Shown here in pieces: positions 36,423 through 62,900 of a DNA stretch of 64,000 nt. Origin of the DNA: a phage; sequence record PZ179883.1, one strand, 5' to 3'. The notes beneath the pieces were generated by a model, which saw nothing but the letters and a program-made list of their open reading frames with translations, did no database searches and was not told where the DNA came from. Each line of letters begins with the position of its first letter. The stretch's first letter is position 1. A program made the position numbers and the translations under genes.

Positions 36423-37004
36423 CTAACCGAGCTTTTTAGTTAATTCGTTCCAATGTTTTCTACACAAAGAAACATAAATTTCATCACCAATACAGATTTG
36501 ATTACCTTCTTTAACTGGTGTTCCATCTTCCATTAATCGAGCTGTCATAATAGCTTTTTTACCACAATGACAAACTGCCTTTAGTTCAATAAGTTTATCT
36601 GCAATCGCCAAAAGTTCTTTAGAACCTTCAAATAATTTTCCAGCGAAATCAGTCCTTAGCCCATAAGCCATAACAGGAACATTATATGTATCAACAATTC
36701 GACTTAATTGATGCACCTGTTCAGTTTTTAAAAACTGAGCTTCATCTACAAATACACAATGAATATCTTTTTGTGCTTCAGCCCATTTATAGAACTCAAA
36801 AATATCCATATCATCCGTAATAATATTCGCTTCCTGCTTAATTCCAATGCGAGAAACGACTTCACAGACAGAATCGCGAGTATCAATAGCAGGCTTAAGA
36901 ACTAATACACCCATTCCGCGTTCTTTATAATTATGTGCAGCAGTCAAAAGAGAAGCAGATTTTCCAGCATTCATTGCTGCGTAAGTAAAAATTAAACTCG
37001 CCAT
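36423..37004 (-). CDS. tk: Thymidine kinase
   Basis: 193 aa; P-loop AAMNAGKS and zinc-binding cysteines. Confidence 0.95.
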   Translation of the reverse strand: MASLIFTYAAMNAGKSASLLTAAHNYKERGMGVLVLKPAIDTRDSVCEVVSRIGIKQEANIITDDMDIFEFYKWAEAQKDIHCVFVDEAQFLKTEQVHQLSRIVDTYNVPVMAYGLRTDFAGKLFEGSKELLAIADKLIELKAVCHCGKKAIMTARLMEDGTPVKEGNQICIGDEIYVSLCRKHWNELTKKLG

Positions 37005-37013
37005 ATCACCTTC

Positions 37014-37199
37014 TTAAAGCATATTCACATAAGCTATTAATTCGTTTTCTTTCTTATCAAACCGATCAGCAAATTCTTCTTGCTGTTCGGGAGATAGCGG
37101 GCCGTATTCATCATAAAAGGTGTTTGCTTCTGTATGCTCATCTAGAAGTTCATGGATAAGCTCAAACAATTTATCTTTTTGTTCTTTACTCAGACTCAT
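37014..37199 (-). CDS. Hypothetical acidic protein (tk.1 position)
   Basis: 61 aa ORF. Confidence 0.4.
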   Translation of the reverse strand: MSLSKEQKDKLFELIHELLDEHTEANTFYDEYGPLSPEQQEEFADRFDKKENELIAYVNML

Positions 37200-37365
37200 A
37201 TATTAATTTCCAGGAGTTTTAAAATAATTCGCTTTTGCTTAAATATTTCCATAGTTAAATGACCAGTATCTTTTTGACCGATTCCAATGGCAAAACCTTT
37301 ATTGACAGCGAGTTCAATTAAATTATCAAGCTCACGTAACACTTCATACTGTAACTCAAAACTAT

Positions 37366-37578
37366 TCATTTCGGTTTACCTTCTTTAACGAAATCTGGAT
37401 AAGGATAAAATCCCGAATAAAATCCTTCACCTTTATGATTGATGCATCCTTTATTAGAACAATAGCACCAATAATCGAAATCACAAGCCATTTCATCGTT
37501 GCATAAAGCAAAAACAACTGGCCATTTACACTTTTCACAATGGGCATTTTTAAGAATACTAGTTTGGCTCATAACCAT
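37366..37578 (-). CDS. Small cysteine-rich protein (likely zinc binding)
   Basis: 70 aa with 9 cysteines. Confidence 0.4.
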   Translation of the reverse strand: MVMSQTSILKNAHCEKCKWPVVFALCNDEMACDFDYWCYCSNKGCINHKGEGFYSGFYPYPDFVKEGKPK

Positions 37579-37796
37579 GTAACCTTTAAGCAGTATTCTT
37601 CTACATGCTGTTTACGACCTTTCTTATCAATAAAGGTATATTCAACGAATGTTCCAATGTAGTCTTTATCTACATCATGCGGACTATTAATTGGACATTT
37701 AGTACGGCAAATGCGTTCCCATTGACGAATAATTACTGCCTTATTCTTTGGGTCATATGGATGTGGATAATGTATATTCATAATAACGGTTCCCAA
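37569..37796 (-). CDS. Hypothetical protein
   Basis: 75 aa ORF. Confidence 0.4.
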   Translation of the reverse strand: MGTVIMNIHYPHPYDPKNKAVIIRQWERICRTKCPINSPHDVDKDYIGTFVEYTFIDKKGRKQHVEEYCLKVTWL

Positions 37797-38245
37797 TCAA
37801 CAATCACAATTTCTAATTTAGAGGAATATGTATCTAAAATCCCCTCAATAATATCCCAGTTCCCTTTACCTATGCCTGCACCAATCCTAGGCATATAGAT
37901 TGTAGGTTTAATCAGTTTATTTTCACCAAACTCATTTAATTCTAACATACAATTCATTAAAGCGGAATACTCAAAATTTGGCCCTGGTTGAAATTGAGTA
38001 TAAAGGTTGAAGCAATACGCTTTATGAGTCCTAAAGTATTTTTCATAGACTGAGTAAGAACCGAGTTTAGTTACATCACCCCATTCAGTCTGTAATTTAT
38101 CAGCTTCCAAAATTTTAGGGAAAGCTTTGGTTAATTGACCCGCTACGCCTGAACCCATAGTATGAAAACAATTGCATCCATGCGCAATATTTTTACCTTC
38201 AGCGAAAAGGGCGACAATATCGCCCTTGATATATTTTACAATCAT
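37778..38245 (-). CDS. Macro domain protein (ADP-ribose binding/processing)
   Basis: 155 aa; HGCNCFHTMGSGVAGQL is the macro-domain glycine-rich loop; family call is from motif recall. Confidence 0.6.
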   Translation of the reverse strand: MIVKYIKGDIVALFAEGKNIAHGCNCFHTMGSGVAGQLTKAFPKILEADKLQTEWGDVTKLGSYSVYEKYFRTHKAYCFNLYTQFQPGPNFEYSALMNCMLELNEFGENKLIKPTIYMPRIGAGIGKGNWDIIEGILDTYSSKLEIVIVDWEPLL

Positions 38246-38589
38246 CTAGTACTCAATCCTCGATTATAAGAATCTACCAAACGGTCAACCATTGAATGAC
38301 AAGCGGCTTTATCTTTCTCCTCCGCAACTGAACATTCTAAGGTATTCCACTTTTTAGCATATCGTTTTAATAATGTATCGTTTTTGTATCTGCTTGATTT
38401 ATCTCTTTCTCCGTCTTTATATGCATATATTAATTTCTGCGCAAATTCAGCTTGGCATGCTTTATTTTTCCCACAATAATCTGCCGCAGTGCGATTTACA
38501 TATTCTCTAATTTCAGTATATGATGTATCTGCTGACGCAGAAGCAGAAAATGAAATTAATCCTATACATAAAACCAAAATTTTAGTCAT
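38242..38589 (-). CDS. vs: Secreted protein at the vs position
   Basis: 115 aa with signal peptide; synteny only. Confidence 0.45.
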   Translation of the reverse strand: MTKILVLCIGLISFSASASADTSYTEIREYVNRTAADYCGKNKACQAEFAQKLIYAYKDGERDKSSRYKNDTLLKRYAKKWNTLECSVAEEKDKAACHSMVDRLVDSYNRGLSTR

Positions 38590-39127
38590 TTACTATTTCC
38601 AAAAGTTTATTATTTTTAAGGTAATTAGCCTTTTCTAGGACTTCAGAAGCATATTTAGAACCAGCTTTAACATTCCATCCCGAATTATAAGAGGATATTG
38701 CTTTTCTTATATCGCCCTTATGTATATTTAACCAATAAGAAAGTTCAATGTACGCCCAGGAAGCTGAATTGGATCGTTTATTCAACATTCTTTTTATTTC
38801 AGCATCGGTCATATTATAACCAAGTTCCTTAACTCTTGCTCGCATAGTAGGCAAATAATTTTGGAACATTCCATAAGCGTGATGCTTTGGTTTAGATTTT
38901 AAATTAACTCCGCCAGAGCTTTCTTGCCATAAAATAGCAGCCATTATATGACCTAATCCGCTCTTGTGGATATTTTTGTGTGTTTTATATTTTCCATCCT
39001 TAGAAAATTGTTCCCCGAATTGATACGCGTAACGCATGTTATCGAGTTGGACATTACTGAAAGTATGCTCGGAGCTATGTGCCATCATTGAAATGGCCAA
39101 TAGACCAGCGAGTAGTGCTTTTCTCAT
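38582..39127 (-). CDS. Secreted lytic-transglycosylase-like protein (vs.1 position)
   Basis: 181 aa; signal peptide; QESSGG motif typical of SLT-type catalytic glutamate. Confidence 0.55.
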   Translation of the reverse strand: MRKALLAGLLAISMMAHSSEHTFSNVQLDNMRYAYQFGEQFSKDGKYKTHKNIHKSGLGHIMAAILWQESSGGVNLKSKPKHHAYGMFQNYLPTMRARVKELGYNMTDAEIKRMLNKRSNSASWAYIELSYWLNIHKGDIRKAISSYNSGWNVKAGSKYASEVLEKANYLKNNKLLEIVND

Positions 39128-39134
39128 GCTTACC

Positions 39135-39596
39135 TCATTGAGTTTTAATTACTGCTTTAGAAGCCTTTCCTGGTAAACGACGACTGTTGATAATTGCCAT
39201 CCTACATTGAAGTGACGGGTCTTTGAACTTCGCGTTAGGTTTACAAACTGTAAATCCAAGCCAAAGATTTCCATCTGTGATTTCTAAACGTCCAGGACGA
39301 TATTCAACCCCATCAATAAAATCCTCGTCAATGTCAGGACGCGGAGGCATACTCAGGAATTCATTAACTTCTAAAACATGGTCTTTTATTTTATGGAATA
39401 ATTCAAAAACATATGTCTCATCAATCTCCCGTTGAATTGCACGATCAAGAAGATGCTGAGAATATTTTAGATGAAACGATGAGACCCCTGCTGCTTTTGA
39501 TGCCTCACGAATCTCATTGTTAATTTGACGAAACTCCGACTCAAAGTGACGACGAAGCTTATTTCGACGGATAAAAACTTCTGTATTGATAGTCAT
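39135..39596 (-). CDS. regB: RegB site-specific endoribonuclease
   Basis: 153 aa, T4 RegB length and position. Confidence 0.88.
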   Translation of the reverse strand: MTINTEVFIRRNKLRRHFESEFRQINNEIREASKAAGVSSFHLKYSQHLLDRAIQREIDETYVFELFHKIKDHVLEVNEFLSMPPRPDIDEDFIDGVEYRPGRLEITDGNLWLGFTVCKPNAKFKDPSLQCRMAIINSRRLPGKASKAVIKTQ

Positions 39597-39619
39597 GTTA
39601 TTCTCCTCTTAACTGATAG

Positions 39620-39656
39620 AAAAATTATACCACAGTCAAGAGGAAAAGTAAACAGT
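39620..39656 (-). promoter_or_regulatory. Early promoter upstream of regB
   Basis: TTTACT N17 TATAAT on the minus strand. Confidence 0.5.
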
Positions 39657-39934
39657 TATTCTTTAAATCTAATCAATTTATTCATAGACTTTGAAACTTC
39701 TGCACGAACCTCATGTAGATTTTTGAGCTGTTCAAGACGCTGCTCATAGTAAGCAATTTCATCTTCTTCGAGACAGTCCTGTGAATCTTCTTTAAGATAA
39801 CGTGCATAGTCCTGGAAAGCGTTACGAACTACTTCCTGGAAGTCATCAAGACTTTGAATTTTCTTAGGAGCAACAGATACACGACGAGGGGCAGTATAAT
39901 ACTCATAACCAAACCCTGCGCTTAATTGAGCCAT
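39656..39934 (-). CDS. Small protein at the vs.3 position (start adjusted, TAATG coupling)
   Basis: 92 aa from [13 protein letters not shown]; upstream gene stop overlaps this start. Confidence 0.45.
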
Positions 39935-59905: not shown

Positions 59906-62900
59906 CAGTAAAAGCACCTTCAGTCACTAGTCTCAGAATTTCCAAGTTATCCGCAAATCAGGTGCAAGTACGCTGGGATGACGTTGGTGCTAATTTCTAC
60001 TATTTTGTAGAAATCGCTGAGACAAAAACAAACTCGGGGGAAAATCTCCCGAGCAATCAATACCGATGGATTAACTTAGGATATACTGCAAATAACAGCT
60101 TCTTTTTTGATAATGCTAATCCATTGACATCGTACATTATTAGAGTAGCTACAGCTGCACAGGATTTTGAGCAGTCTGATTGGATTTATACCGAAGAGTT
60201 TGAAACTTTTGCTACAAACGCTTATACATTTCAAAACATGATTGAAATGCAATTAGCTAATAAATTCATTCAGGAAAAATTTACTCTTAATAATTCTGAC
60301 TATGTTAATTTTAATAATGATACTATAATGGCTGCATTGATGAATGAATCATTCCAATTCAGCCCATCATATGCTGATGTTTCATCAATAAGTAATTTTA
60401 TTATTGGTGAAAATGAGTATCATGAAATACAGGGTTCTATTCAGCAAGTATGTAAGGATATTAACCGAGTTTATTTGATGGAATCAGAAGGGATTCTATA
60501 CCTTTTTGAGCGTTATCAACCTGTAGTTAAAGTATCCAATGATAAAGGACAAACTTGGAAAGCTGTAAAGCTCTTCAATGACCGCGTAGGATATCCTTTG
60601 TCTAAGACAGTATATTACCAATCTGCGAACACAACATACGTTCTAGGATACGACAAGATTTTCTATGGCCGCAAATCGACTGATGTTAGATGGTCAGCTG
60701 ACGATGTCAGATTTAGTTCTCAGGATATAACATTTGCTAAACTTGGAGATCAACTTCATTTGGGATTTGATGTTGAAATATTTGGTACTTATGCTACATT
60801 ACCAGCGAATGTATACCGCATTGCAGAAGCTATTACTTGCACCGATGATTACATTTATGTTGCCGCCAGAGACAAAGTTAGATACATAAAAACAAGCAAT
60901 GCACCCATAGATTCTGATCCATTATCTCCAACATATTCGGAAAGGCTTTTTGAACCTGATACAATGACTATAACCGGAAATCCTAAAGCAGTATGCTATA
61001 AAATGGATTCTATCGGTGATAAAGTTTTTGCTCTTATTATTGGTGAAGTTGAAACATTAAATGCTAATCCTAGAACATCAAAAATAATTGATTCTGCTGA
61101 TAAAGGAATATATGTTTTAAATCATGACACAAAAACATGGAAAAGAGTTTTTGGCAACACTGAAGAAGAAAGAAGACGTATTCAACCAGGGTATGCGAAT
61201 ATGTCAACTGATGGTAAATTAGTTTCTCTATCATCGAGCAATTTTAAATTTTTAAGTGATAATGTTGTTAATGACCCTGAAACTGCAGTAAAATATCAGT
61301 TAATCGGTGCTGTTAAATATGAATTTCCTCGTGAATGGTTAGCTGATAAGCATTATCATATGATGGCATTTATAGCAGATGAAAAGTCTGATTGGGAAAC
61401 TTTTACTCCTCAGCCGATGAAATACTATGCAGAACCATTCTTTAACTGGTCTAAAAAATCTAACACACGTTGTTGGATAAACAACTCTAATAGGGCTGTG
61501 GTAGTTTATGCAGATTTAAAATATACTAAAGTTATTGAAAATTTTCCAGAAACATCGCCAGATAGATTAGTTCATGAATACTGGGATGACGGCGATTGCA
61601 CTATAGTAATGCCAAACGTTAAATTCACGGGATTTAAAAAATATGCGTCTGGGATGCTTTTTTATAAATCCTCTGGTGAAATAATTTCTTATTATGATTT
61701 TAACTATCGAGTGAGAGACACGGTTGAAATAATTTGGAAGCCAACTGGAATATTTTTAAAAGCATTTTTACAAAACCAAGAGCATGAAACCCCTTGGTCG
61801 CCTGAAGAAGAGCGTGGATTAGCTGACCCTGATTTAAGACCATTGATTGGCACAATGATGCCTGATTCTTATTTGTTACAGGATTCGAATTTTGAGGCAT
61901 TTTGCGAAGCATATATTCAGTATCTTTCTGATGGATATGGAACCCAGTATAATAATTTACGAAATTTAATTCGTAACAAATATCCACGAGAAGAGCATGC
62001 ATGGGAATATTTGTGGTCAGAGATATATAAAAGAAACATTTATTTAAATGCTGACAAACGTGATGCTGTTGCAAGATTTTTTGAATCACGTAGCTATGAT
62101 TTTTATTCTACTAAAGGAATTGAAGCATCATACAAATTTCTTTTTAAAGTTCTTTATAATGAAGAAGTTGAAATTGAAATTGAATCTGGTGCTGGTACTG
62201 AATACGATATAATCGTTCAATCTGATTCTTTAACTGAAGATTTGGTAGGACAAACGATTTATACAGCCACAGGAAGATGTAATGTTACTTATATAGAAAG
62301 AAGTTATTCTAATGGTAAATTGCAATGGACCGTAACTATTCATAATCTTTTGGGAAGATTAATTGCTGGTCAAGAAGTTAAAGCAGAAAGACTTCCGAGT
62401 TTTGAAGGCGAAATTATTCGTGGTGTTAAAGGAAAGGATTTGCTTCAAAATAATATAGACTATATTAATAGAAGCCGATCATATTATGTAATGAAAATTA
62501 AATCCAATTTACCTTCTTCTCGCTGGAAATCTGACGTTATTCGTTTTGTTCATCCAGTAGGATTTGGATTTATAGCAATTACCCTTTTAACGATGTTTAT
62601 TAATGTTGGTTTAACTCTTAAACACACAGAGACTATAATTAATAAATACAAAAACTACAAATGGGATTCTGGATTGCCTACTGAATATGCTGATAGAGTA
62701 GCTAAATTAACTCCAACTGGCGAAATTGAACATGATTCAGTGACAGGAGAAGCAATTTATGAACCTGGCCCAATGGCTGGTGTAAAATATCCTCTTCCTG
62801 ATGACTATAATGCTGAAAATAGTAATTCAATATTTCAAGGTCAATTGCCTTCTGAACGACGCAAGTTAATGAGTCCTCTATTTGACGCATCTGGAACAAC

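Follow-up and report, generated by a model that had tools for sequence, protein, structure and literature searches.

The tk.4 locus

The stretch of DNA analysed here (the window) comprises 64,000 nucleotides of a phage genome, sequence record PZ179883.1. On its minus strand, positions 37778..38245 hold an open reading frame of 155 codons, running from an ATG to a stop, which encodes a protein with a single macro domain. This ORF is tk.4 (adfM) of a T4-like phage. Its product is 100% identical in amino acid sequence to T4 Tk.4, whose entry is ORF 60.5 in X04567, and alignment places the counterpart, annotated as tk.4, at 60922..61389 of T4 NC_000866. The surrounding part of the window, 37568..39856 (tk.3 to vs.3), shows 98.8% nucleotide identity to T4 in blastn, and 99.8% identity to phage ECO07P4 extends across 3.2 kb. 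The tk.4 ORF lies far beyond what chance would produce.

Directly upstream of tk.4 lies vs (38242..38589, minus strand), the gene of the valyl-tRNA synthetase modifier, and directly downstream lies the tk.3 orthologue (37569..37781, minus strand), which encodes 70 aa from an ATG at 37781 and was assigned by alignment to T4 and by PHROG 2008. As read from the sequence, the TGA stop of vs overlaps the ATG of tk.4 in an ATGA, and the TGA of tk.4 overlaps the ATG of tk.3 in another. The gene is part of a tightly packed, translationally coupled run on the same strand. The initial annotation had located the ORF between tk and vs, which is accurate: vs adjoins it, while tk.3 and three small ORFs separate it from the thymidine kinase gene tk (36423..37004, minus strand). 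The ORF 37569..37796 was considered as a gene additional to the T4 set and was rejected when blastn identified it as the tk.3 orthologue. A promoter scan gave nothing above chance (17 found, 21.8 expected).

In the T4 reference record, tk.4 is labelled "phosphatase; contains A1pp phosphatase motif", and many related records use "macro domain protein" or "Poa1p-like family protein with Macro domain". Relatives of Tk.4 are encoded by 2,751 of 50,697 phage records (about 5%, E ≤ 1e-5), including phages of Tequatrovirus and those of Klebsiella, Vibrio, Acinetobacter, and Pseudomonas. Annotations of the domain go back years, and a 2025 preprint described a role, so the gene is already known; this work adds only the recognition of a Gln-type active site and the distinction of Tk.4 from the DarG-type phage macrodomains.

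Fold and macrodomain class of Tk.4

The initial annotation recognized a macro domain in the 155-aa ORF, and this assignment is borne out by several lines of evidence. Residues 22–132 are covered by Pfam Macro (PF01661) with 27.7 bits, above the gathering cutoff of 22 bits, and PHROG 335 ("phosphatase") matches the protein at 1e-65. The AlphaFold2 model, with a mean pLDDT of 96.2 and a pTM of 0.91, has the three-layer alpha/beta/alpha architecture of the macro fold.

When Tk.4 was searched against PDB sequences, the matches were BT1257 (E 1e-9), yeast Poa1p (E 3e-6), SCO6735 (E 3e-4), Thermus aquaticus DarG (E 5e-4), TARG1 (E 6e-4), and Mycobacterium tuberculosis DarG (E 6e-3). The structural-neighbour list gave BT1257 (18.6), Poa1p (17.8), M. 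tuberculosis DarG (17.5), T. africanus DarTG (17.0), and TARG1 (16.9), after which the next best entries, coronavirus macrodomains followed by PARP14 and others, reached at most 13.8. The nearest neighbours are therefore those of the ALC1-like/TARG1/Poa1p class, with a clear gap to MacroD-type and viral macrodomains. MacroD and Af1521, which the initial annotation had proposed as comparators, scored only 10–12 against 16.9–18.6 for this class. On the strength of the PDB matches and the structural-neighbour values, Tk.4, a stand-alone macro domain, belongs to the ALC1-like/TARG1/Poa1p class and not to the MacroD/Af1521 type.

Active-site residues and their conservation

Both glycine-rich loops of a macro domain are found in Tk.4. 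The ADP-ribose-binding loop 1 spans residues H22–L38 (HGCNCFHTMGSGVAGQL; 38132..38182, minus strand) and contains N25 and the stretch G31-S-G33-V; residues 23–38 read GCNCFHTMGSGVAGQL, exactly the glycine-rich loop that had been quoted in the initial annotation. The phosphate-binding loop 2, P119–W130 (PRIGAGIGKGNW; 37856..37891, minus strand), contains I121-G-A-G124-I and aligns with MPRIGCGLDRLQW of TARG1, with G126 opposite the catalytic D125 of that protein. N25, G33, and A35 are invariant across 48 homologues, and P119, I121, G122, and G124 are invariant across these and 80 bacterial relatives.

The catalytic-position motif of Tk.4 is N80-L-Y-T-Q84 (37994..38008, minus strand), and the Q84 codon, CAA, occupies 37994..37996. 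For the comparison with known enzymes, reference sequences were taken from printed PDB alignments and aligned with Tk.4 and its family members by MAFFT (alignment A2). This alignment and a profile alignment to TARG1 agree on the register of NLYTQ, and both were used; a single-sequence phmmer alignment to BT1257, in which the motif was misaligned, was set aside. In the same columns stand YLITK of TARG1, NFPTK of DarG, MFPTK of PhiKZ gp104, and NMIGQ of both SCO6735 and BT1257, and Q84 faces TARG1 K84, DarG K80, and SCO6735 Q85. Because these motif columns line up, the position of the catalytic lysine in TARG1 and DarG is, as aligned, held by Gln84 in Tk.4. Two further residues of loop 1, H22 and N25, align with SCO6735 H24 and N27, and N25 also aligns with N23 of PhiKZ gp104.

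This glutamine is unchanged in 128 of 128 relatives, namely 48 mostly phage-derived homologues and 80 bacterial genomic relatives. N80 and Y82 are likewise invariant in the 48 phage-type sequences and in the 80 bacterial relatives plus Tk.4, and T83 is found in 79 of 81. The bacterial relatives were found with a pattern on residues 21–30 only; therefore, the invariance of Q84 is independent of that scan. As to the catalytic residues whose loss, according to the initial annotation, would speak against its proposal, the picture is divided: the macro fold, N25, and Q84 are in place and both residues are invariant, but the catalytic lysine of DarG and TARG1 and the D125 of TARG1 are absent.

An acidic position was also observed in the same comparison. 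D49 (38097..38099) is invariant in 128 of 128 family members examined, while this column holds Tyr in DarG, SCO6735, BT1257, Poa1p, and PhiKZ gp104, and Leu in TARG1. Judged from these alignments, D49 is a conserved acidic residue specific to the Tk.4 family.

The phosphatase label raises the question of whether Tk.4 is a Poa1p-like ADP-ribose-1''-phosphate phosphatase that clears the by-product of 2'-phosphotransferase-type RNA repair or tRNA splicing. Of the Poa1p residues mutated in deposited structures (H23, S30, and F152), the first is retained as H22 and the second is conservatively replaced by T29; the third, however, gives way to G126 in Tk.4, and most relatives have Ala there. The label itself goes back to domain homology rather than to an assay, and the sole phenotype found for tk.4 is specific to DarTG2, which a phosphatase would not explain. 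To our knowledge, RNA repair in T4 is performed by Pnk and Rnl1, neither of which makes Appr>p. We regard a phosphatase role as very unlikely.

At its active site, Tk.4 resembles a group of Gln-type ALC1-like macrodomains represented by SCO6735 of Streptomyces coelicolor and BT1257 of Bacteroides (PDB 5e3b, 2fg1, and 2afc). Like SCO6735, it combines Gln at the DarG/TARG1 lysine position with the His and Asn of loop 1. In SCO6735, Gln85 occupies the lysine position, and activity is lost in both Q85A and Q85E (PMC9411070). This enzyme clears DarT-made thymidine-ADP-ribose from DNA with higher efficiency than either DarG or TARG1, and the mechanism suggested for it is water-mediated (PMC9411070). 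The resemblance has limits, as Tk.4 is only 22–29% identical to SCO6735 and BT1257. It lacks the insert of 4–5 residues after the Gln, where both proteins carry a mobile loop, GxxxxSKG; the DNA-contact lysines K34 and K89 of SCO6735 correspond to S32 and G88, and the family-specific D49 stands in place of Tyr.

Role of Tk.4 in resistance to DarTG2

DarT2 is known to ADP-ribosylate thymidine of single-stranded DNA, and the macrodomain of DarG2 undoes this modification (PMC11825919). In the HIDEN-SEQ study, a T4 insertion library was grown on Escherichia coli expressing DarTG2, and tk.4 was the sole significantly depleted gene; a clean tk.4 knockout sensitised T4 to DarTG2 (bioRxiv 10.1101/2025.11.20.689424). 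This genetic evidence comes from a preprint, in which a single plasmid-borne DarTG2 was used, with cells in minimal medium at 30 °C (bioRxiv 10.1101/2025.11.20.689424). According to these published experiments, tk.4 is required for the growth of T4 on a DarTG2 host. The name adfM (anti-DarT factor Macrodomain) was chosen by the authors, who noted the structural likeness of the gene product to M. tuberculosis DarG and judged that an enzymatic removal of the ADP-ribose on DNA "seems likely" (bioRxiv 10.1101/2025.11.20.689424).

Taking the genetics together with the active site described above, we consider it highly probable that Tk.4/AdfM is an ALC1-like-class macrodomain that removes DarT2-made thymidine-ADP-ribose from phage DNA in a Q84-dependent manner. 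Both the removal by Tk.4 itself and the role of the glutamine are what we infer from this combination. In the proposed mechanism, DarT2 of a DarTG2 host would attach ADP-ribose to thymidines of TNTC sites in single-stranded DNA replication intermediates and thereby block phage replication. Such sites occur in the window at about 37 per kb, both strands counted. The ADP-ribose moiety would then be bound in the macro-domain cleft of Tk.4 through the two glycine-rich loops, and hydrolysis of the thymidine–ribose bond would restore normal DNA, allowing replication to resume. The invariant Q84, in a protein without a catalytic lysine, probably positions the substrate for water-mediated hydrolysis, as in SCO6735. 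Some points weigh against this explanation: Tk.4 has neither the catalytic Lys of DarG and TARG1 nor the Asp of TARG1, G126 being found there; the DNA-contact lysines K34 and K89 of SCO6735 are missing as well, and the score on the DarG model, 30 bits, is far from the cutoff of 250.

Protection may not be purely catalytic, because SCO6735 and DarG inhibit DarT also through direct binding (PMC9411070). In the extreme form of this idea, Tk.4 would protect mainly by binding or occluding DarT2, and catalysis would not be needed. Inhibition of DarT in vitro persists with the catalytically dead variants SCO6735 Q85A, DarG K80A, and TARG1 K84A (PMC9411070), and AdfB of phage ICP1 is a pure DarT binder (PMC11481870). 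On the other hand, the 155-aa Tk.4 lacks the C-terminal DarT-binding domain of DarG, its match to the DarG model being limited to positions 2–146 of 338. Moreover, strict conservation of the residues that bind ADP-ribose and of those at the catalytic position extends to phage and free-living bacterial relatives without a DarT2 neighbour, a pattern that speaks for selection on an enzymatic function. Protection chiefly by occlusion is therefore quite improbable in our assessment, and removal of ADP-ribose from DNA is retained as the preferred explanation.

The initial annotation had suggested that the protein could reverse host ADP-ribosylation, in a phage group that itself uses the transferases Alt, ModA, and ModB, or could degrade ADP-ribose-derived signals. 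The idea of reversal survives as an anti-DarTG2 function, which the knockout genetics support and which would be exerted on DNA; its extension to host proteins or to Alt, ModA, and ModB targets is improbable. Reversal of the latter is unlikely because these T4 enzymes modify arginine, and we know of no macrodomain of the Tk.4 class that cleaves the arginine–ADP-ribose linkage. For the degradation of signals, nothing in the evidence points that way: no tk.4 phenotype other than that on DarTG2 has been reported, and nothing links the gene to an encounter with Thoeris-type signals or to the degradation of signalling nucleotides in T4. Reversal of protein ADP-ribosylation by T4 or host transferases, or destruction of ADP-ribose-derived immune signals or O-acetyl-ADP-ribose, is thus the least probable of the alternatives and can be regarded as remote.

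Tk.4/AdfM explains the natural resistance of T4 to DarTG2. Since relatives are found in about 5% of sequenced phage genomes, this type of counter-defence bears on host range and on the choice of phages for therapy.

Relation to DarG, PhiKZ gp104, and bacterial macrodomains

In PADLOC and NCBIfam, Tk.4 matches nothing but DarG models (36 bits in PADLOC, and 30.3 bits for NF048014 of NCBIfam), and the NF048014 cutoff is 250 bits, far above the score obtained. DarG of T. aquaticus (5m31/5m3e) and M. tuberculosis (5m3i) uses catalytic K80 where Tk.4 has Gln84, and it possesses a C-terminal DarT-binding domain, which Tk.4 lacks, as it does an adjacent darT. The view of Tk.4 as an orphan DarG was rejected in light of the score far below the cutoff, the replacement of Lys by Gln, and the missing DarT-binding domain.

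A scan of species-representative genomes yielded 233 loci with Tk.4 relatives (32–43% identity), often on megabase contigs, from Rhodobacterales, Hyphomicrobiaceae, Verrucomicrobia, Desulfobacterales, Hymenobacter, and others. The neighbourhoods of 80 of these 233 loci were kept for analysis. No neighbour family occurred in more than 10 of the 80 loci, and a single-sequence phmmer search, which is of limited sensitivity, detected a DarT2 homologue within 4 kb in 0 of 80; none was found in the window either. Because a DarT2 neighbour is missing in these 80 loci and in the window, the Tk.4 family is one of stand-alone macrodomains and not of DarT-operon antitoxins, which argues against a simple "orphan DarG" origin.

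Two homologues, P0072 and P0118, are labelled as coming from bacterial metagenome-assembled genomes (MAGs) but were rejected as such, since they lie on T4-like phage contigs with Rnl1, PNKP, and dCMP deaminase; they are therefore uninformative on the bacterial context. On two contigs deposited as Bacilli and Culicoidibacterales MAGs (L002 and L003; GCA_051648945.1 and GCA_051660865.1), T4-type genes (Rnl1, PNKP, dCMP deaminase, a Dda-like helicase, and spanin) flank the Tk.4 homologue. Judging by this gene content, both contigs almost certainly derive from phages and ended up in bacterial MAGs through binning.

The name AdfM was also given, independently, to gp104 of phage PhiKZ (PMC13309987). 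This protein removes DarT2-made ADP-ribose from an oligonucleotide in vitro, and the N23A substitution reduces its activity (PMC13309987). Both proteins are single macrodomains of phages that counter DarTG2, and both carry the loop-1 Asn (N23 in gp104 and N25 in Tk.4). PhiKZ gp104, however, is a true DarG-type protein, with the FPTK lysine and a match to M. tuberculosis DarG at E 9e-25. On the DarG HMMs it scores 133–138 bits, which is also below the full-length cutoff, against 30.3 and 36 for Tk.4. BLASTP aligns only 23 residues of the two proteins, and hhalign gives a probability of 96%. As the DarG-HMM scores, the FPTK lysine versus Gln, and these alignments indicate, the two AdfM proteins fall into different subfamilies whose catalytic residues differ, and they are probably independent acquisitions that share a name. 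The use of one name for the distantly related Gln-type Tk.4 and Lys-type gp104 is likely to cause confusion when annotations are transferred.

A broader proposal is that T4 AdfM de-ADP-ribosylates DNA through a distinct, Gln-dependent mechanism and was recruited not from DarG but from a widespread stand-alone bacterial family (HGCNC...NLYTQ, invariant D49), and that T-even and PhiKZ-like phages converged independently with different active sites. We hold the chances for and against this proposal to be evenly balanced. If it is true, the T4 enzyme might also accept other thymidine- or ester-linked ADP-ribose adducts.

Another T4 protein of related function is AdfN (gene 30.3, NADAR), which counters the guanosine-specific DarTG1 (PMC11825919). 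Like Tk.4, it is a stand-alone eraser of the T4 lineage that reverses DNA ADP-ribosylation by DarT; unlike Tk.4, it has the NADAR fold and acts on guanosine, against DarTG1. Judging by T4 map positions, its gene presumably lies outside the window.

Other features of the tk–vs region

Several further observations concern the DNA around tk.4. The segment between tk and tk.3 (37005..37567, 563 bp) contains three small ORFs on the minus strand (61, 57, and 70 aa), and it gives no alignment to the 367-bp tk.1/tk.2 segment of T4, while its flanks are 97–99% identical. From this comparison, the segment resembles a cassette of small genes that has been swapped or is variable. Within tk.4 and antisense to it, a terminator-like hairpin of 8 pairs followed by a T-run is present on the plus strand (38207..38227); it is probably a chance match.

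The N-terminus of Vs (38242..38589, minus strand) resembles a signal peptide (MTKILVLCIGLISFSASASA), which is odd for a protein that modifies a cytoplasmic enzyme, if Vs does so. In the HIDEN-SEQ preprint, vs was the most depleted gene in minimal medium (bioRxiv 10.1101/2025.11.20.689424). The product of the adjacent vs.1 (38582..39127, minus strand; 181 aa), annotated as hypothetical in T4, also has a signal-like N-terminus, and it gives weak PHROG matches (E 1e-5 to 6e-4) to lytic tail protein and endolysin families. These sequence features suggest that Vs.1 may be a secreted lytic-transglycosylase-like enzyme.
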